Part shown: piece by piece, positions 7,961-49,736 of the stretch
How the letters are laid out: every line of letters starts with the position of its first letter
How positions within the stretch are numbered: the stretch's first letter is position 1
UHGV virus genome: UHGV-0090252
From: a virus
Strand: one strand, 5' to 3'
DNA length: 64,000 bases
The notes under the pieces: generated by a model
What the model was told of the DNA's origin: nothing
What the model saw: the letters and a program-made list of their open reading frames with translations, nothing else
Databases searched by the model: none
Made by a program: the position numbers and the translations under genes

Positions 7961-15982
<8,022 letters not shown>

Positions 15983-25642: not shown

Positions 25643-27259
25643 TCAACGTCTAAGCCCCTCATATGGGTTTCCTCTCACTAAGTCTGTGTGAGCACCCATT
25701 GATGGTGGCTTGAATAATTTAACTTCGTTAAGACTGTTGAAAGCATCACTGGTAGCATCCACTTGGTCATCTTTAGTTTTGCCATCACCACAAAAGCCTT
25801 CAAGCTCTTGAAAGTAAGCTTCATTCCAACTACCTCTCAAGACTTTTACAAGTCCAGCTTCAGAAGCAGCAGAAAATCCCGCAAAGCGGGTAACTTTATC
25901 TTTATTTGTTGGTTTAGCTCTTGCACGATAGCCTTTCTCGGCAAGTTTCCTGATGAGGGATGTTGCGTAGGATTTACCAGCAGCGCCTGGGTCTTGAGGG
26001 ATAAAAATACCAGTTCGCTTACCGTCACTTTCAGCAGTCAAATTAATTTGTGTTTCGACTCCAGAGGGTCTATCTCTAAATCTTACTACATCAATGATAT
26101 AATAGCAACCGTCTTTTTTAGATTTACCCATCTTAACACCTGCTGTCCAGTCTGGATTAGGGTTAACCTCAGATGGTAAAGTTGCTGCTAAGTCCCATGC
26201 TCTAACATCAAATACATCTTCTGGGAGTGAATCAACAATCTCACACCATTGTCTTTGCCAATAGTTTGAACCTTCTGCACGAGCCTTCCAGTTACCGAAA
26301 CGAAGTCTTGCAACGTTTACAGGAGTGTTGTTTTCAAGCTTACCGCGATACTTTGGCTCTAAGAAGTCAAGAATTGGGTTATCATCAATCGTACCAGAGA
26401 TGAAGGTGTATGTTTGAGGAATCTCAAGAGGGAACATTTCAAGAATCTTGTCTCTCTCCCAATCAGAAACCATCACACCATCATTCATTACATACCAACG
26501 AATACGACCACACTTTTCAGGGTCTGGGTAACCTTCTTCATCTAAGAATGGTTCTACCCAATCGTAAATAAAGTGGTCTCTATCTGGGTTCATGGAAATC
26601 TTCATGTATGAATCACCTTCAGCACCAGAACGTAGACGAGTTTGTAGGTATGAAATCTGTGAAGCAGAGAAGTGTGTACCTTCGTCAAAGTAAATAGCTG
26701 AGTATTCAATACCCTGATGACCTTCAGCGTGCTTTTCAAGTTCTAGGTAGGTAAACTTGATAGTTGCCCCAGAAGGGAATGTGATAGTCATTTTCTGCTC
26801 GTGAGGAATCCCACCAAACTTACCAAATAGTTTCTTTGCAGCAGGCCATAAACCACCTTGTAACTGTGTTGTATTTCGACGGAAATATACAGCATTATAG
26901 TTAGGGTCTTCAATAAATCTTAAAGAGTCCATTAACAATGCGGCAGTTTTACCAGCACCAGCAGCACCACCATAGAGAACCAAGTCAGCATTAGTATTTA
27001 AAAAGACCTCTTGAGAACCCGGTTGAGGTGCTACATAGTTCTTATCAGTCATCAATTTAAAGATGAGGCGAACTTGGTCTGGTGTGTATCTTAATAAAGT
27101 CAGAATTTGAGTTGGAAGGAATTTAGAGGGGTCTTTACCGAATGATTTAATAATTTCTTTTACTTCATCAGAAAGCCCCAACTCTCCAGCTAGGACTTTC
27201 CTAACATCTTCCACTCGCTTCTGCTTAACAGCATTTAAGTCCATTAAGCGCCTCCGCAA
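25643..27259 (-). CDS. terL: terminase large subunit
   Basis: 538 aa; Walker A-like LYGGAAGAGKT plus nuclease-domain-length C-terminus. Confidence 0.9.
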   Translation of the reverse strand: MRRRLMDLNAVKQKRVEDVRKVLAGELGLSDEVKEIIKSFGKDPSKFLPTQILTLLRYTPDQVRLIFKLMTDKNYVAPQPGSQEVFLNTNADLVLYGGAAGAGKTAALLMDSLRFIEDPNYNAVYFRRNTTQLQGGLWPAAKKLFGKFGGIPHEQKMTITFPSGATIKFTYLELEKHAEGHQGIEYSAIYFDEGTHFSASQISYLQTRLRSGAEGDSYMKISMNPDRDHFIYDWVEPFLDEEGYPDPEKCGRIRWYVMNDGVMVSDWERDKILEMFPLEIPQTYTFISGTIDDNPILDFLEPKYRGKLENNTPVNVARLRFGNWKARAEGSNYWQRQWCEIVDSLPEDVFDVRAWDLAATLPSEVNPNPDWTAGVKMGKSKKDGCYYIIDVVRFRDRPSGVETQINLTAESDGKRTGIFIPQDPGAAGKSYATSLIRKLAEKGYRARAKPTNKDKVTRFAGFSAASEAGLVKVLRGSWNEAYFQELEGFCGDGKTKDDQVDATSDAFNSLNEVKLFKPPSMGAHTDLVRGNPYEGLRR

Positions 27260-27265
27260 ATAGAA

Positions 27266-27466
27266 TTATTCAGAGTCTGTAGCAGTCTCTTCTTTCTTAA
27301 CTTCGAACTTTGCATCAACAGCATCAAGAAGTGCATCCATAGATGCTTCTTTAATATCAATACCTGTTGCTACAGATAGTCTGTCTGCAATTGCCATGAT
27401 AGTATTCTGCATAAACTCTAACTTCTTGTTAGCTTCATAAAGTTCTTTATAAACGGTCTCGCTCAT
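27266..27466 (-). CDS. small protein upstream of terminase (function unknown)
   Basis: 66 aa; GGAGA RBS. Confidence 0.4.
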   Translation of the reverse strand: MSETVYKELYEANKKLEFMQNTIMAIADRLSVATGIDIKEASMDALLDAVDAKFEVKKEETATDSE

Positions 27467-27688: not shown

Positions 27689-27764
27689 TGGAGAATCCGA
27701 AGGGACTCGAACCCTTATAAACCTGTTTTGCAGACAGGCGCATATCCATTTCTGTCACGGATTC
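27689..27764 (-). tRNA. tRNA-Cys (anticodon GCA)
   Basis: Hand-folded cloverleaf; 7-bp acceptor, T-loop TTCGAGT, encoded CCA. Confidence 0.8.
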
Positions 27765-27768
27765 AAAT

Positions 27769-27861
27769 TGGAGGAAGATACCAGACTTGAACTGGTACAC
27801 CGATTTCTCAGCTACTGGCAGTTTAGCAAACTGCTCCCTTACCTTTTAGGGTTAATCTTCC
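27769..27861 (-). tRNA. tRNA-Ser (anticodon GCT), long variable arm
   Basis: 93 nt, type II structure, encoded CCA. Confidence 0.75.
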
Positions 27862-27862
27862 G

Positions 27863-42162: not shown

Positions 42163-42731
42163 TTAAAAGAGACTTGAGAGTTATGGAAAAGGGTGATGTA
42201 AAAGAAGTTGAAGGTAACTACCTAGTACTTGACTGGAGTGATGTTCGAGAAGCATTATCCAAAGAAAGCCTTGACATACTAGAGCAGCTTGTCTTCTCAG
42301 TACGGCATATCAGAGAAGTTAAGAATGGTAAAGAGCCATTAGAAGGAATCTTTGTAGAGAAGTCTTATCCGTTCTATGAAGACACTTTACAGAAAGTTAA
42401 GATGTACTTTAAACAGAAGAACCGTAAAGTGGTCACTATGACATCTCTTGGTGGACAGAATATGTCTATTATGGAAGATATCAACCCTAAGAGACCGAGC
42501 AAAGGTGTCTGTATAAAAATCACAGGGCATGAAGAGTATATCTCAGTGGATGATTTTAGTGTGTTCTGTAATGGTTCTGCTGTCTTTAATGGGTTTCACT
42601 ATGATATCCGAGTGTACCCAATCAAGGGAGATGCTGTTATGATGCAGATATTCGATAACAACAATGGATTCACTCATTTTTATCAGACAACCAAGTCATC
42701 ACTGAAGACAGTTCTGGAAACACTGATTTAA
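42159..42731 (+). CDS. hypothetical protein
   Basis: 190 aa. Confidence 0.5.
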   Translation: MIKRDLRVMEKGDVKEVEGNYLVLDWSDVREALSKESLDILEQLVFSVRHIREVKNGKEPLEGIFVEKSYPFYEDTLQKVKMYFKQKNRKVVTMTSLGGQNMSIMEDINPKRPSKGVCIKITGHEEYISVDDFSVFCNGSAVFNGFHYDIRVYPIKGDAVMMQIFDNNNGFTHFYQTTKSSLKTVLETLI

Positions 42732-42742
42732 AATATCTTAAG

Positions 42743-42773
42743 AGCCTCCTTAATTGGGGGCTTTTTATTTTTT
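42743..42773 (+). terminator. rho-independent terminator ending the plus-strand block
   Basis: AGCCTCC-TTAATTG-GGGGGCT followed by TTTTTATTTTTT. Confidence 0.65.
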
Positions 42774-42789
42774 ATAAAATTTTATCGGT

Positions 42790-44300
42790 TGTACCAACCT
42801 CTGGGTCACCATCATATGTGAATAAAATATCTATCCTTCTTAACAGCCTTCTTAATCTTACTCTCTATATAGTTATATAGTACTATATAGTATCTTAGTA
42901 ACTATCTAGTGGTCTTAATAGCCCTCTGTATAACCCTTCTAACAAGCCCTCTAACAAGCCTTCTAAACAACCTATACAATCACCTTAACCATCTCTCTAT
43001 ACTCTCTTAGAAGCTCCCATACACCTCTTAATCTCTAGGTTAGCTATGACACTCTCTATAGGTGTTCACTAGGTATTACTAAGCCTCTATATAGACTGTT
43101 TTAACAAACTTAACAGGAATATCTTCACAGACCTTATCTCACAAGGTCTAACACGGTACTAACAAGGTATCTTATAAGCCTGTTTCCACCTGTATTTTTA
43201 AAAGACTGTATAGGTAATTATTCAGAATTTTAAAATTTTTATAAAATAGGACTATCAAGTCATTTTTTTAGGGTCTTTGAAGGAACTGAAAAATATCTGT
43301 AGAAGATGTATATCTGCTTGGTAGCCCTTAACAGCTCCCTTACAAGTACTTTGCAGAATTTTAAAATATCATTAACAGTTTCTTAACAGTTCTCACATCT
43401 TCTTAACAACTCTTCAAAGGTCTTAACAGTTTCTTAACAGAACTAACAAGGGTTTAACAGTTTTCTAGGGATTGGTAACAATACCAATTAACAAGTGCTG
43501 AATAGGCTTTACAGAGGCTTAACAGATGACTAACAAGAGCTAACAAGTTAATTTTTAAGAGTTATTTTGTTAAGATAATTAACAAGTCCCTAACAAGTGT
43601 TTAATCTTTTTAACAAGCTATTAACATGGTCACTACTCTTTTCTTATCGTTCCCTTTCCTTTCTTAGTGACTTCTTAAACATACCTCTTAAAAGCTCTTA
43701 AAAGCTCTTTATAGGCTCTTTTAAGTCCCTCCCTAGTATTTACCCCTCAACTGTATGGATAGCTCTTTATAGGGCTTTACAGGAGCTTTTAAGGCTATGC
43801 CAAAGGTTCTTACAAGGTTTTTACGTGGTCTTAACAGAGATTTAACAAGGTGCTAACAAGAATAACTATGTAGGGTTTGTTAAGAAAATGTTAAAAAAAT
43901 GTTAAGGGGGCTAGCATTTACGTAACTTTTAAGCTACTTCAAAGTAACTTTATAACCCCTATAACATACTTTTTAATAGCTATCAAGGGGTTTGTTTAAT
44001 CATTCACAAGATACTAGCCAGCCTATAAGCTTTCACCCTTATAAGGTTCTTTTAAGGCTCTCAGAAGCTTTATAAAGGGCTTTTTAGGGTGGGTTAATAT
44101 GATTGCTTAAGTTAGGGTGATAAGGCTGTTATAGGGCGTTATAGAGCGTTTAAGGGGTTGCCCTTCCCTTTCGGGTTATGGGCTTATATTTAAGTTGATT
44201 TGATAAGAGGTTATAGAGTAGACTATAGAGTTATTGCTTTTTAAGGTCTAGTAAGATTCTGGAAAGGAAAGGGAAAGGGTTTGTATAAGGATTCGATAGA
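42790..44300. repeat. 1.5-kb non-coding region dense in short motif repeats (TAACAG/TAACAAG more than 25 copies; TATAGRG; CTTTTAAG), with a strand-composition switch
   Basis: No ORF of 60 aa or more; left part almost G-free on the plus strand, right part C-poor; lies between convergent terminators. Confidence 0.6.
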
Positions 44301-44303
44301 CGT

Positions 44304-44328
44304 AAAAAAGCCCCTTTGAGTAGGGGCT
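44304..44328 (-). terminator. rho-independent terminator ending the minus-strand small-gene array
   Basis: Minus-strand AGCCCCT-ACTCAA-AGGGGCT followed by T6. Confidence 0.65.
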
Positions 44329-44366
44329 GTTCAGGTATCTGGGGCTAAATAGCCCCGCTGCGTCGA

Positions 44367-44615
44367 TTAGTTAGTGCCTTCTTTGTCGTAGTACAGGGAG
44401 ACAATTTTTTCACCCCAATAGTGAAAAGAATAACCCTCTTTAAGAACTTCCTGTTTTGTTTCCTCCCAGAACTCATTAGAAGGATTATAGTCGCTGATGG
44501 TCTGACTGATAAGACCTTTCACCATTTCAAAGGCGTTATCAGTGCCTGCAATGTCAAATTTAACATCCAGAGAGTAAAAACCAAATTCGTTAACAGTAGC
44601 GCGGATAGTTGCCAT
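44367..44615 (-). CDS. small protein, array gene A
   Basis: 82 aa; ATG immediately follows conserved leader ...AGGAGATTCAAAAATG. Confidence 0.55.
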   Translation of the reverse strand: MATIRATVNEFGFYSLDVKFDIAGTDNAFEMVKGLISQTISDYNPSNEFWEETKQEVLKEGYSFHYWGEKIVSLYYDKEGTN

Positions 44616-44683
44616 TTTTGAATCTCCTAGTTTAAGGGTTTTATTTAGTGGGGAAGGTCATTCCCTCTCCGTTGATTGACAAT
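44616..44683 (-). promoter_or_regulatory. conserved leader type 1 (GC hairpin GGGAAGG/CCTTCCC-like plus SD)
   Basis: Fills the whole intergenic gap; near-identical copies before 6 other genes of the array. Confidence 0.55.
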
Positions 44684-45214
44684 TTACAGATTTTTGATTG
44701 TCTCATCAATATCTTTTTCAATATCTCTCAAAGTTTTTTCTAAGTTCTTGATATTGAAAGATAAGCCTTCTCCCAGTGTCTTAGCGTAACCATTGGGGCG
44801 CAAGTCATGCAGTTCGATTCCTTCCACTTCGAAGAGACTAACCAGCTCACCGCTTACAGTGTAAGCCATTGAAACAGTATTTACAGGGGCTTTATAGAAC
44901 TTGTTTAAGAACTTGATTGAACGCTCATAAGCCATTTTATAGCTATTTAAAAGGTTTTTAACTTGGCTATGAACGTTTTTGCACTCATCCAAGTAAATCC
45001 CTAAGAATAGCGGTAATAATTCTGCTACAGCTTGCATAAAGTGAGAGACTACAACGGTTGCAGCATTACGACGATGAACGTAATAAGCCCCGTTTTCTGA
45101 TTTGGTGATGGTTGCAAAGTGTACCCCATTGCAGCGAAATTCGTAGGTATCTTTGACAGGCTTTGACATTACAGCATTTGAACGAATATAGTTGATGGCT
45201 TTGAACTTGTTCAT
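44684..45214 (-). CDS. hypothetical protein, array gene B
   Basis: 176 aa; conserved leader upstream. Confidence 0.55.
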   Translation of the reverse strand: MNKFKAINYIRSNAVMSKPVKDTYEFRCNGVHFATITKSENGAYYVHRRNAATVVVSHFMQAVAELLPLFLGIYLDECKNVHSQVKNLLNSYKMAYERSIKFLNKFYKAPVNTVSMAYTVSGELVSLFEVEGIELHDLRPNGYAKTLGEGLSFNIKNLEKTLRDIEKDIDETIKNL

Positions 45215-45300
45215 TTTTGAATCTCCTAGTTTAAGGATTTTATTTAGTGGGGGAGGTCATTCCCTCCCGTTGATTAGTAATTTACTTGTTTTGATAGCTG
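45215..45300 (-). promoter_or_regulatory. conserved leader type 1 (hairpin GGGGAGG-6 nt-CCTCCCC plus SD)
   Basis: Perfect 7-bp GC stem about 45 nt before the ATG; followed by a further 140 nt non-coding gap. Confidence 0.55.
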
Positions 45301-45437: not shown

Positions 45438-45779
45438 TTAACTGATGAATATTTTTTCAGGTTTTACATAGCTGATACGTTGGATTTTTAGCAGGTCATC
45501 CCAGATTAGTGCGGCAATATGAGCATAACCGGATTCACGTAGAAGCTTCATTGCTTTACTTCTCGTTTCAAATCGGTTTGCATAGTACTCGCTGCTCAGG
45601 GTTGTTTTCTTCCCTTCATTGTCTACATGAATAATCTGCATTACTTGGAAGGGGCTTACATCCTCGCCTTTATTCCATTGCTCAAAGTATTTTAGGCACT
45701 GCATAGGTGTCATCTTATCACTTACTTGGGTTGACCAAGATGAATCCGGTTTATTGGTGATTACAGTTACATAAGCCAT
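45438..45779 (-). CDS. hypothetical protein, array gene C
   Basis: 113 aa. Confidence 0.55.
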   Translation of the reverse strand: MAYVTVITNKPDSSWSTQVSDKMTPMQCLKYFEQWNKGEDVSPFQVMQIIHVDNEGKKTTLSSEYYANRFETRSKAMKLLRESGYAHIAALIWDDLLKIQRISYVKPEKIFIS

Positions 45780-45870
45780 TTTTGAATCTCCTAGTTTAAG
45801 GATTTTATTTAGTGGGGGAGGTCATTCCCTCCCCGTTGATTGACAATTTACAGACTTTTATCAGGCTTGT
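45780..45870 (-). promoter_or_regulatory. conserved leader type 1
   Basis: Same sequence family as 44616-44683. Confidence 0.55.
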
Positions 45871-46104
45871 CTAGTCTTTTTCAATGATAATTTCATATTG
45901 ACCATCAACACTATCAAAATAAATGCCGTCGTCGTCTTCTGTCTTAAAGTAGCATTGAATATCATCACTTGCGGGGTAGTCTTGCCTTGCTATCTGGCAA
46001 ACTTGAATAGCATTTTCTTTACTTCCTGTAAACTCCTCAAGCCCTTTAAAATCGCATGAATGACCATTACAGATGGAAAGGATGAGATAAATGGTTGTAA
46101 GCAT
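45871..46104 (-). CDS. small Cys-containing protein, array gene D
   Basis: 77 aa. Confidence 0.5.
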   Translation of the reverse strand: MLTTIYLILSICNGHSCDFKGLEEFTGSKENAIQVCQIARQDYPASDDIQCYFKTEDDDGIYFDSVDGQYEIIIEKD

Positions 46105-46797: not shown

Positions 46798-47001
46798 TTA
46801 TCGGTTATTTTTGACAACTTTTAAAACAGCACGGTAACCTAAGCAATAGGAATCACCGAAGAGCGACCGACCCATGAAGGAGTCCTCTGTAATATCTTTC
46901 GCCGTGACGGTTTTTTCTACGCCGTGAAAAAGAACTACATCCCCGGCTTTAATGTCTTTGATGTGTGTGGTTTCAATGGTTAAGCCGTTAATAATAGCCA
47001 T
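46798..47001 (-). CDS. small protein, array gene F
   Basis: 67 aa. Confidence 0.5.
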   Translation of the reverse strand: MAIINGLTIETTHIKDIKAGDVVLFHGVEKTVTAKDITEDSFMGRSLFGDSYCLGYRAVLKVVKNNR

Positions 47002-47111
47002 TTTAGAATCTCCTAGTTTAAGGGCTTTATGTAGTGGGGGGGATGGTCATTCCCTCCCCGTTGATGTGTAATTTAATATATATATATAAAAACCAGTGTC
47101 AACAAAAATTT
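47002..47111 (-). promoter_or_regulatory. conserved leader type 1 plus (TA)5 tract
   Basis: Type 1 hairpin and SD; atatatatata at about 47078-47089. Confidence 0.5.
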
Positions 47112-47603: not shown

Positions 47604-47876
47604 TTATACTAAATGCAGTTTTTTACCTTTTACTATGATGTAACTTGATGCGCTATTACTTTGCACATCTTGATAAATTCTACGCAAACGGCCTTCGTAG
47701 TATACTTTCCAACTGGTTGGAATCTTTTTCCCGTATCCTGTAGCAGTTTTTTGCAGTCCTGCAAGTTGCCAATCAAGAATATGTTGTTCAGCTTGTAAAT
47801 CCTCGAAGTGCATTACGCCGTTCACATAGTGGCGCAGGGTTACGTTTAAGGTGCGACCGTTGTTAGTAGTATACAT
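47604..47876 (-). CDS. hypothetical protein, array gene H
   Basis: 90 aa. Confidence 0.5.
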   Translation of the reverse strand: MYTTNNGRTLNVTLRHYVNGVMHFEDLQAEQHILDWQLAGLQKTATGYGKKIPTSWKVYYEGRLRRIYQDVQSNSASSYIIVKGKKLHLV

Positions 47877-47966
47877 TTTAGAATCTCCTAGTTTAAGGGC
47901 TTTATGTAGTGGGGAAGGTCATTCCCTCCCCGTTGATTAGTAATTTACTTGTTTTTAAAATCAAAA
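47877..47966 (-). promoter_or_regulatory. conserved leader type 1
   Basis: Type 1 hairpin and SD. Confidence 0.55.
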
Positions 47967-48299
47967 TCAAGATAAATTTTTTCGTTTGCTCAGTTCTTGA
48001 ACAATTACAGCGTAGTAGTCTTTTAAGTCACTGATATTTAAAGCATTTATCAGAGAGTTATAATCATCGACTAACTGAAAATCATCTTTAAAGATGTCGC
48101 TGATTTGATAAGTTCTCGATTGAAATCTGAAACTCATTTCTAACCGTTTTATTTGTTCATCACTTAAACGCTCCAGAAAGCTCATTACAAGGCTATTATT
48201 GACCTGTTGCGTGATTGCCTTACTTGCCAGAGTATAGGCGCTGTACGCCTTATATAGCGCCATAATAGCAATGATTGCAGTGATGCCAGTCATTAGCAT
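47967..48299 (-). CDS. membrane-associated protein, array gene I (translationally coupled to J)
   Basis: 110 aa; N-terminal hydrophobic helix; 7-nt overlap with upstream gene, no leader of its own. Confidence 0.5.
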   Translation of the reverse strand: MLMTGITAIIAIMALYKAYSAYTLASKAITQQVNNSLVMSFLERLSDEQIKRLEMSFRFQSRTYQISDIFKDDFQLVDDYNSLINALNISDLKDYYAVIVQELSKRKNLS

Positions 48300-48589
48300 G
48301 GTGATTCCTCTTTACGTGATACTTTGCCGCTTACAGTTATCTCATAAGATTCTAATAAATCACTTTTAGACTTTACAGGGCTTTTAAAAGTATTATCGTA
48401 AATATTGACTTGCAATACAGGGTTTTTATACTCCCTGCAACTATTCCATAAGCAAATCACTACACGACGGCCTTTAATTTTGCCGTGTAACCATTCCATA
48501 ACATCATGATTATTTCTTGATGTTTCAATGAAATCAATTTTATTAAGTAACTTGCTCAGATTTTCACGAACTTTATTTGATAATTTCAT
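48293..48589 (-). CDS. hypothetical protein, array gene J
   Basis: 98 aa. Confidence 0.5.
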   Translation of the reverse strand: MKLSNKVRENLSKLLNKIDFIETSRNNHDVMEWLHGKIKGRRVVICLWNSCREYKNPVLQVNIYDNTFKSPVKSKSDLLESYEITVSGKVSRKEESPC

Positions 48590-48677
48590 TTTAGAATCTC
48601 CAATTTAGGATTTAGTGGTAAAGCTCTTTATCTGGGGCTTACTTTATCGAACTATAAGCCCCCTGTAAAGTACTTTA
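48590..48677 (-). promoter_or_regulatory. conserved leader type 2
   Basis: Identical over about 80 nt to 47517-47603. Confidence 0.55.
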
Positions 48678-48968
48678 TTAGTTAATTTTCAGCTTTGCAT
48701 GACCTCTCATTGTACGAATGGGGGAGGTTAAGGCTACGCGTCTAATATATGCCTTTTTCGTGTATATATTTGTCTTCCCGATAGTGTTTACACATGTAAA
48801 AAGGTTTATTGGTGAATTTTTTAACTTCAACTGTTTATCAACCTTCACGCCCCACCTTACAGCAGACTGTTTTCCGTTGTCAACAACTTTACCGCATAAC
48901 TTTTTAGCCATAATGCGAGCATCATCACGAGTTTTTGCAGTAATTACAACGTTTTTGATAATAGCCAT
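48678..48968 (-). CDS. small basic protein, array gene K
   Basis: Start set to the leader-aligned ATG at 48968 (ORF track extends to 48983 into the leader). Confidence 0.5.
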   Translation of the reverse strand: MAIIKNVVITAKTRDDARIMAKKLCGKVVDNGKQSAVRWGVKVDKQLKLKNSPINLFTCVNTIGKTNIYTKKAYIRRVALTSPIRTMRGHAKLKIN

Positions 48969-49054
48969 TTTTAAGTTCTCCAATTTAGGATTTAGTGGTA
49001 AAGCTCTTTATCTGGGGCTTAAGATATCAACTTTTAAGCCCCCTGTAAAGTACT
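48969..49054 (-). promoter_or_regulatory. conserved leader type 2
   Basis: Hairpin GGGGCTTAA-11 nt-TTAAGCCCC. Confidence 0.55.
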
Positions 49055-49438
49055 TTATTTGTTAATTTTGAAGATAGTTACATAACCATCGCTACCAATG
49101 ATTTGCGGCACTCCAACTTTTTCTACTGAATAGCCCATATTTTCAAGATGATAAATGGCATCATCATAACCATATGCGCCACCCTGATAACGTCTCTTAT
49201 TGCATTTTATCAGGTTTTTTCCACGTCCTGCAAGTGCATTCAGTATGGTTTTTTCGCTTGAGAGTGTACCATCTATCATGGTTGCCGTGTAATGGTTGAT
49301 TTTATTCCCGTTGATGTCATATTTAAAATTAAATGAGTGAACAACAATTTTATTGCCTTTGAAATTCTCATCAAGTGACTTCTCCAGTACGTTGCGAAAG
49401 TTGTCTTTGTTGATGAATTTCGGTGCACGATAAGCCAT
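49055..49438 (-). CDS. hypothetical protein, array gene L
   Basis: 127 aa. Confidence 0.55.
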   Translation of the reverse strand: MAYRAPKFINKDNFRNVLEKSLDENFKGNKIVVHSFNFKYDINGNKINHYTATMIDGTLSSEKTILNALAGRGKNLIKCNKRRYQGGAYGYDDAIYHLENMGYSVEKVGVPQIIGSDGYVTIFKINK

Positions 49439-49529
49439 TTCTGAATCTCCTAGTTTAAGGGTTAATGTGGTAAAGCTCTTTATCTGGGGCTTAAGATATC
49501 AACTTTTAAGCCCCCTGTAAAGTACTTTA
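49439..49529 (-). promoter_or_regulatory. conserved leader, type 1/type 2 hybrid
   Basis: Type 1 SD-proximal part joined to type 2 hairpin. Confidence 0.5.
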
Positions 49530-49736
49530 TTAGATATCGTAGTAATAAACTGCTGTCTGTCTTATGTGCTTTCTTGTATTTCTTGTAAGGTAGCAATCAG
49601 AGTTGATTGCTGTTTCTACATAGTTGCAATAGTCAGCTTCTGATATTCTAGACCATACGCCACAGATTTGCATGTAAAAACGTTTTACCTTTGTGTTAAC
49701 GTTAGTTGTAACCATCAATTCACGACCGTATAGCAT
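49530..49736 (-). CDS. small protein, array gene M (first gene of array)
   Basis: 68 aa. Confidence 0.5.
   Translation of the reverse strand: MLYGRELMVTTNVNTKVKRFYMQICGVWSRISEADYCNYVETAINSDCYLTRNTRKHIRQTAVYYYDI

Follow-up and report, generated by a model that had tools for sequence, protein, structure and literature searches.

What is the role of a stretch of about 1.5 kb that encodes no recognizable gene and is filled instead with short, regularly spaced repeats? This question is posed by an island at positions 42776–44303 of the virus genome UHGV-0090252, of which we analyzed one stretch of 64,000 nucleotides (hereafter the window, to whose positions all coordinates refer). The longest open reading frame (ORF) in any frame between 42732 and 44366 was 34 amino acids, in keeping with the claim of a preliminary description, made from the letters alone, that no ORF of 60 amino acids or more lies between two convergent terminators. 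The terminators themselves, placed in that description at 42743–42773 and 44304–44328, matched hairpins at 42740–42765 on the plus strand and 44328–44309 on the minus strand. The left one is a Rho-independent terminator (42740–42775, plus strand, a 10-pair stem at 42740–42765 followed by a T-run) that closes the plus-strand gene block and is kept in Felixounavirus relatives. The right one (44299–44328, minus strand, a 7-pair stem and a T-run) closes the minus-strand gene block and carries a terminator annotation in the records of Tribble and Moogle. The preliminary description had offered three possible identities for the island: an iteron-bearing replication origin, a site for packaging, or an array of sites bound by protein. 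Based on the evidence below, we are fairly confident that the island forms the genome terminus, or concatemer junction, of a myovirus (subfamily Ounavirinae) that has a short direct terminal repeat (DTR).

The window was identified as belonging to a Felixounavirus, that is, a Felix O1-like myovirus of the Ounavirinae, with Tribble as its closest relative (96.7% identity). When positions 42700–44400 were used as the query in a search for relatives, 257 phage records were matched, nearly all of them Felix O1-like myoviruses, and 203 of the 257 covered at least 80% of the query. The counterpart of the region in Felix O1 itself is at 12272–13959, between two convergent blocks of small genes, function not known; the genome paper on Felix O1 covers other repeats, without any discussion of this region. 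The genome announcement that compares phages VSe11 and VSe102 mentions a "noncoding region containing repeat sequences" that differs between the two by a 33-bp unit, and this is apparently the same region.

A wider search revealed that several GenBank records start or stop inside the island, and that they always do so at the same places. In the record of phage D4, 581 bp are repeated exactly at the two ends, the first base of the record corresponding to window position 43911 and the last to 43320, and the D4 termini were called by its authors with PhageTerm (PMC11737134). The record of NBEco004, from another laboratory, has an exact 628-bp repeat that starts with GGTAGCCCTTAACA (43320) and ends with TGTTAAAGGGGC (43911). 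One or other of the two boundaries also opens or closes the records of H12, for which a PhageTerm assignment of the termini is published, and of SeKF_63, ECP2307, Ro111lw, pEP20, NBSal004 and GE_vB_7A, the last of these within 2 bases. The right boundary is the start of the D4, H12, SeKF_63 and Ro111lw records and the end of those of NBEco004 and ECP2307, while the left boundary is the start of the NBEco004 and pEP20 records and the end of that of D4. In all, at least nine records from different laboratories have an end on one of these two bases, and the ends they mark are fixed, sequence-specific and non-permuted.

Biochemical evidence for the location of the ends comes from UAB_Phi87, whose terminal repeat was determined as 608 bp by Bal31 digestion and run-off sequencing (PMC4837284). 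In the record of that phage the boundary motifs are 614 bp apart, as against the 608 bp measured. The start of the UAB_Phi87 record was considered as a physical end and rejected, as it falls in a tRNA cluster; the boundary motifs and the SpeI sites served instead to locate the true ends. With the only SpeI sites in the vicinity, the terminal fragments should measure 4431 and 2751 bp, and discrete Bal31-sensitive fragments of 4322 and 2819 bp were reported (PMC4837284). The same work found no cohesive ends, heating of the digests having left the restriction pattern unchanged. For another phage, Pr103Blw, repeats of 581 bp were assigned with PhageTerm. We also observed that the UAB_Phi87 record is 87,603 bp long versus 87,669 bp in the paper (PMC4837284).

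Given the D4 and NBEco004 repeats, the other records that open or close on the same bases, and the results for UAB_Phi87 and Pr103Blw, we assigned the DTR to 43320–43911 on the plus strand, a length of 592 bp; by homology to relatives that carry the repeat at both ends, the virion DNA of the phage in the window would start at 43320 and end at 43911, with the same confidence as was stated for the island as a whole. The assembled window holds a single copy of this repeat, and two are expected in virion DNA, one at each end. The packaging-site option of the preliminary description is therefore the one that fared best, in that the genome ends of the relatives and their DTR map inside the island, a location that agrees with three publications (PMC4837284, PMC8303462, PMC11737134). 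The published Felixounavirus DTRs are the same element, with identical boundary sequences and lengths of 581–628 bp. That such a DTR exists, and how long it is, was already known, and several records had been opened at these ends; the literature that we found on Felixounavirus DTRs gives their existence and length only, with no description of the motif lattice, the boundary blocks, the symmetry of the flanks or their spread across genera, to which we turn below. The class of terminus is also clear from the relatives. A short exact DTR, the same sequence at both ends, is present in D4 and NBEco004 and again in the more distant Erwinia phage M7 (444 bp). A headful pac site of the P22, P1 or SPP1 type was rejected, the ends being precise and identical between phages, as was a cos site, given the records with long direct repeats of blunt type and the lack of any effect of heating on UAB_Phi87 digests.

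The two ends are each embedded in a short block of highly conserved sequence. The left boundary block (43307–43333, plus strand) consists of TGTATATCTGCTT followed directly by GGTAGCCCTTAACA, the genome end falling between 43319 and 43320, and the right boundary block (43898–43922, plus strand) consists of AATGTTAAGGGGGC followed by TAGCATTTACG, with the genome end between 43911 and 43912. In an alignment of 14 genomes (11 Felixounavirus and 3 of the Mooglevirus type), the left block was invariant in all 14 and was present also in SUSP2, a Suspvirus; the right block, in the form AATGTTAAGGGGGC followed by TAGCWTTTACG, was nearly invariant in the 14 and in SUSP2. Abutting the right end of the repeat are three motifs in the opposite orientation to the rest of the repeat (TGTTAAG, TGTTAAA and TGTTAAG, 43878–43906, minus strand, period 11), and this triplet is kept in all relatives aligned. 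With the triplet at its right end, the DTR therefore starts with GGTAGCCCTTAACA and ends with TGTTAAGGGGGC. Together with CCCTTAACA at 43325–43333, the triplet gives the DTR a 9-bp inverted repeat at its termini, as read from the sequence. No hairpins beyond those of shuffled sequences were found at the two cut sites (z = +0.65 and +0.38).

Between and beside these blocks, the island is dominated by a single short motif. The words TAACAG and TAACAAG occur 22 times on its plus strand (10 and 12 copies, respectively) and once on its minus strand, against an expectation of about 0.5 copies together from the rest of the window, counted as 7-mers (0.28 for TTAACAG and 0.21 for TAACAAG). Seventeen of the 22 copies, all on the plus strand, are inside the DTR and five are in the left flank. 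The shorter core TAACA occurs 28 times on the plus strand and five times on the minus strand, so that the preliminary description's figure of more than 25 copies holds for the core and is too high for the two exact words. The tandem string of motifs that it quoted was located at 43422–43460, within the densest iteron-like array (43372–43460, plus strand), in which seven exact TAACAG or TAACAAG copies and a TAACAA variant at 43404 are spaced by multiples of ~11 bp. Ten pairs of neighboring motifs in the island are 9–12 bp apart, and no such pair is found elsewhere in the 64 kb. Relative to other 1.5-kb pieces of the window, the autocorrelation of the island has maxima at lags of 10 (z = 8.7) and 11 (z = 8.2), with harmonics near 21 and 32, and it lacks the 3-bp signal of coding sequence. 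Two related leads were dropped. Elsewhere in the window TAACA(A)G copies are isolated, and apparent clusters at 10.5–12 kb and 27–28.5 kb contain no phased pairs; sites for IHF (WATCAANNNNTTR) gave no exact match and were only about twofold enriched when one mismatch was allowed.

The DNA on either side of the DTR has its own arrays and a strongly biased strand composition. In the left flank (42776–43319, plus strand) are phased short-motif arrays, including CTTCTTAACAG, CTCTATATAG/TATATAGTA at 42865–42910 and the 12-bp tandem CCTTCTAACAAG at 42935–42966, along with the related phased motifs CTTCTAACAAG and CTCTATA. This flank, measured over 42774–43319, is G-poor (G 12%, GC skew −0.27 and locally to −0.50) although not, as had been put forward, almost G-free. 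The right flank (43912–44303, plus strand) is C-poor, with phased arrays of TATAGGG/TATAGAG, CTTTTAAG and GGAAAG, lag-11 periodicity, and tandem and inverted repeats; the C content of 13%, the five copies of TATAGG and the four of CTTTTAAG agree with its earlier characterization. With a GC skew of +0.26, locally to +0.55, it also confirms the reported switch in strand composition across the island. In both composition and motifs the two flanks are approximately reverse complements of each other, so that one finds similar DNA past the repeat whether reading inward from one virion end or from the other.

This mirror symmetry would suit a function that treats both ends alike, and it raises the question of whether the arrays act on the injected linear DNA, in protection from exonucleases, in DNA entry or in the joining of ends into concatemers, rather than on the concatemer junction. 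The motifs are within ~1 kb of both virion ends, there are no Chi sites near the ends, and a preprint on PhageMaP states that the Felixounavirus Bas63 is without a RecBCD inhibitor, all of which would be in line with such a role. However, direct evidence for it is absent, these features are also compatible with the concatemer junction being what is recognized, and the placement of the inverted motif triplet and the invariant blocks right at the cut sites speaks for the cutting reaction. We consequently consider a role in the handling of injected DNA quite unlikely. The likeliest role of the arrays is the assembly and positioning of the machinery for packaging and end cutting.

A replication origin, the first option of the preliminary description, would have the TAACA(A)G copies as iterons for an initiator and the AT-rich segment at 43196–43270 as the unwinding element. 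The phased direct repeats do resemble iterons: the iterons at plasmid origins and in the parC centromere of plasmid R1 (11 bp) are also direct repeats phased by 11 bp whose copy number varies by whole units. The AT-rich segment is conserved and palindromic as well. It includes an imperfect palindrome (43196–43235, an inverted repeat 85–125 bp outside the left end of the DTR) that folds as single-stranded DNA with z = −3.07, none of 200 shuffled sequences folding as well, and its conservation is 0.88–0.95; a protein dimer might bind this palindrome, or the segment might melt easily. The cumulative GC skew of the window, suggested earlier as a check, indeed has an inflection, a local maximum, at 42–46 kb. 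This turn is not independent evidence, however, because it coincides exactly with the switch of gene orientation from the plus to the minus strand. There are no exact DnaA boxes in the region, and with one mismatch there is one, compared with 18 in the whole window. No gene for an initiator is known, either beside the island or elsewhere, and in contrast to the plasmid systems no Rep or Par gene is associated with the arrays, which belong to a lytic phage and are positioned at its genome ends. The terminal repeat already accounts for that position. The origin option has no specific support, and we regard it as unlikely that the island is or contains an origin. There is nevertheless a precedent for a combined role in phage T7, which has secondary origins beside its ends.

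Conservation across genera indicates that the region is under selection. In the 14-genome alignment the conservation of the island was mostly 0.85–0.98 per 30-bp bin, compared with 0.72–0.78 for the adjoining gene ends, and it dropped to 0.5–0.6 at a variable 22-bp insert (43466–43488). The left flank aligns over 92–100% of its length, at 78–96% identity, to Felix O1, UAB_Phi87 and Mooglevirus, and the right flank aligns to relatives over 70–100% of its length. Each of the three parts of the island aligns to Mooglevirus over 70–100%, whereas the neighboring genes do so over only 15–40%. In the comparison with related genomes that had been proposed as a check, the region was better conserved than the neighboring genes across genera. 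Within it, TAACA cores were more conserved than other positions (0.94 versus 0.87), with 79% versus 53% of positions invariant (permutation p = 0.002). The array at 43372–43460 illustrates this pattern well, with invariant cores and variable spacers in the 14 genomes, and in M719 it has gained an 11-bp unit; insertions and deletions in the terminus region come as units of 11 or 22 bp, with the helical phase retained.

More distant relatives extend the pattern. In SUSP2 (NC_028935.2, 70740–72406) the same boundary blocks delimit a predicted repeat of 591 bp, and the G+C content of the region is 35%, compared with the 47% reported for the whole genome of mistaenkt, a close Suspvirus relative of SUSP2; the region has therefore resisted genome-wide compositional drift. 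In the Erwinia phage M7 (Kolesnikvirus), no more than ~80 bases match the query, yet the layout is the same: a 1447-bp ORF-free gap with lag-11 periodicity, in the middle of which is the exact 444-bp terminal repeat. That gap has 12 copies of TGTTAAG and 16 of GTTAAGA on one strand, the same core and polarity as in the window once orientation is matched, and one of its flanks has an array of CTTCTAA.

These comparisons bear directly on whether the repeats are simply neutral products of replication slippage in spacer DNA. Copy number does differ between genomes by 11-bp units, and the 33-bp difference between VSe11 and VSe102 apparently lies in this region, as slippage would predict. Neutral spacer DNA would not, however, be expected to be better conserved than its neighboring genes across genera, to keep 35% G+C in SUSP2 despite the 47% of mistaenkt, to have cores more conserved than spacers, or to retain the same core motif and polarity in a phage as diverged as M7. 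We therefore consider slippage a very unlikely explanation for the arrays.

A separate type of variation was also observed in the alignments. Palindromic mini-insertions of 22–26 bp are present at differing positions, and in both orientations, in the terminus regions of different genomes, including the window (43466–43488) and the relatives L009, L015, L017, L026 (SUSP2), L010, L016 and L001. Among them are GGGATTGGTAACAATACCAATTA, CTAGTTGATTCGGTAGAATCTACCTCAT immediately outside the left boundary, and TATGAGATAGATTCTATCGAATCCAT in the loop of the right terminator. They look like small mobile or recombination-borne units.

A long, ORF-free, conserved and repeat-rich stretch could also encode a long non-coding RNA that sequesters an RNA-binding protein through its repeated motifs. 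The transcriptional context of the island makes this extremely unlikely, as terminators face it from both sides, promoter-like matches in it reach at most 9 of 12 positions, mostly through the likeness of TTAACA to TTGACA, and the physical ends of the genome cut through it. An Rfam search with E values up to 1 gave no match inside the island; the single weak match, to Phe_leader (E = 0.071, below the gathering score), was at 42710–42770 and overlaps the left terminator. In the terminus reading that we prefer, the two terminators would keep transcription away from the junction of the genome ends.

How might such a region work? In the model that we favor, the 592-bp repeat would terminate the packaged molecule at either end, and each unit of a replicating concatemer would contain it once. 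The TAACA(A)G lattice and the flank arrays would be bound along one face of the helix by the packaging-recognition machinery, which would comprise the terminase and a further recognition or architectural protein, and the bound complex would position a nuclease at the two invariant boundary blocks. Cuts or nicks ~590 bp apart, followed by strand-displacement synthesis, would then give each packaged genome a full copy of the repeat, as in the T7 paradigm on which these steps are modeled; the single copy in the assembled window is consistent with such a duplication. After infection, the repeats would allow the ends to join by recombination or annealing. The protein-binding array of the preliminary description is plausible: the motifs are phased and polar and are kept in several genera, with cores conserved above spacers.

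As for the proteins involved, the large terminase subunit, TerL, is encoded at 25643–27259, as identified by the Pfam families Terminase_6N/6C, and Felix O1-type TerL proteins were reported to cluster as a DTR group (PMC4837284). Directly upstream of the TerL gene is a 66-amino-acid ORF (27266–27466, minus strand) that has no Pfam match and belongs to phrog_4397, function not known; by its position it is a candidate for a small terminase or recognition subunit. The helix-turn-helix protein encoded at 843–1142, which had been proposed as a DNA-binding protein to assay, belongs to the generic HTH_3 regulators, and nothing ties it to the island.

By analogy, the packaging region falls into an established category, concatemer junctions that have a short DTR and repeat arrays, and its closest counterpart is the junction of T7 and T3, which also has an exact short DTR in non-coding DNA. 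In T7, PacB is recognized by gp18 and PacC is cleaved by gp19, and the terminase acts at specific sites in the concatemer (PMC9860248). We checked the T7 sequence and found 13 copies of CCTAAAG with a 12–13 bp period in and around the 160-bp repeat, against 22 of TAACA(A)G with a 10–11 bp period in the window; the two are alike in having a motif repeated on one strand, inside and beside the repeat, at near one helical turn, and T7 thus offers a clear precedent for the design. They also differ in several respects. The repeat of the window is ~590 bp rather than 160 bp and its repeated motif is different, its flanks have a mirror-image strand composition, and its junction is bordered by convergent terminators with no strong promoter, whereas T7 has promoters (phiOL; A0–A3) beside its left end. 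The phage is, moreover, a myovirus with a T4-type TerL fold and no recognizable small subunit, and T7 uses gp18.

Short boxes that flank the site of terminase cutting, and that probably assemble a recognition complex on bent DNA, are a feature of other packaging systems as well, namely the pac hexamers of P1, the R sites of lambda cosB and pacL/pacR of SPP1. Those phages have cohesive or headful, permuted ends, unlike the fixed, directly repeated ends of the window phage, and far fewer boxes than the ~28 cores over 1.5 kb of the window.

Several points weigh against the terminus and packaging interpretation and should be noted. The ends of this particular phage were assigned by homology only, and in UAB_Phi87 the predicted and reported fragments, although from the same SpeI interval, differ in size by 70–110 bp. 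The mirror-image composition of the flanks is a feature that a packaging model does not predict. No small terminase subunit is recognizable in the phage. Protein binding to the arrays, and a need for them in packaging, are predictions of the model, and the role of the analogous arrays in T7 is itself not settled.

A more specific idea is that the TAACA lattice is a docking track for a novel packaging-recognition or end-handling protein that would replace a conventional small terminase, and that the element perhaps also acts as the site where replication starts. The idea rests on the core and its polarity being kept in four Ounavirinae genera with no recognizable small terminase, and in it the mirror-image flanks would let the protein act identically on both sides of the junction. 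We view this as speculative and rather doubtful.

Some observations on neighboring parts of the window can be recorded here. The minus-strand gene block right of the island has at least eight copies of a conserved ~80-nt upstream element, in two types. Type 1 (44611–44695, 45212–45292, 45775–45885, 46991–47075 and 47874–47981) is a G+C-rich stem-loop (GGGGAGGGAATGACCTTCCCC) followed by ACTAAATAAAAYCCTTAAACTAGGAGATTCAAAAATG, and type 2 (48583–48689, 48959–49071 and 49433–49530) has CTTTACAGGGGGCTTAAAAGT and, further on, AAGCCCCAGATAAAGAGCTTTACCAC, and matches the 57-bp repeats in the Felix O1 paper. These elements are probably shared early regulatory, terminator or leader modules. At 27689–32580 on the minus strand, 25 tRNA genes are clustered, among them two for tRNA-Met. 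From the gene order of H12, the gene for the large RNA-binding (vWFA/Ro60-like) protein of the relatives should be beside this cluster; the PhageMaP preprint discusses that protein as a counter-defense factor.

Locating the region has a direct consequence for annotation in that it fixes the true genome ends, given that the ~260 related GenBank records mostly begin at other points, with the stretch unlabeled or filled with tiny spurious ORFs. Many public records, OQ845957, PP952733, JN225449 and SME50 for example, have spurious ORFs of 25–50 amino acids in the terminus region or arbitrary opening points. It is also of practical interest, as Felix O1-like phages are used in Salmonella typing, biocontrol and therapy, and a cis-acting packaging region is needed to make transducing particles, to reboot synthetic genomes and to build contained phages, as has been done for T7. 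For the biology of the Ounavirinae, the lattice offers a handle on how a myovirus without a recognizable small terminase finds its own DNA.

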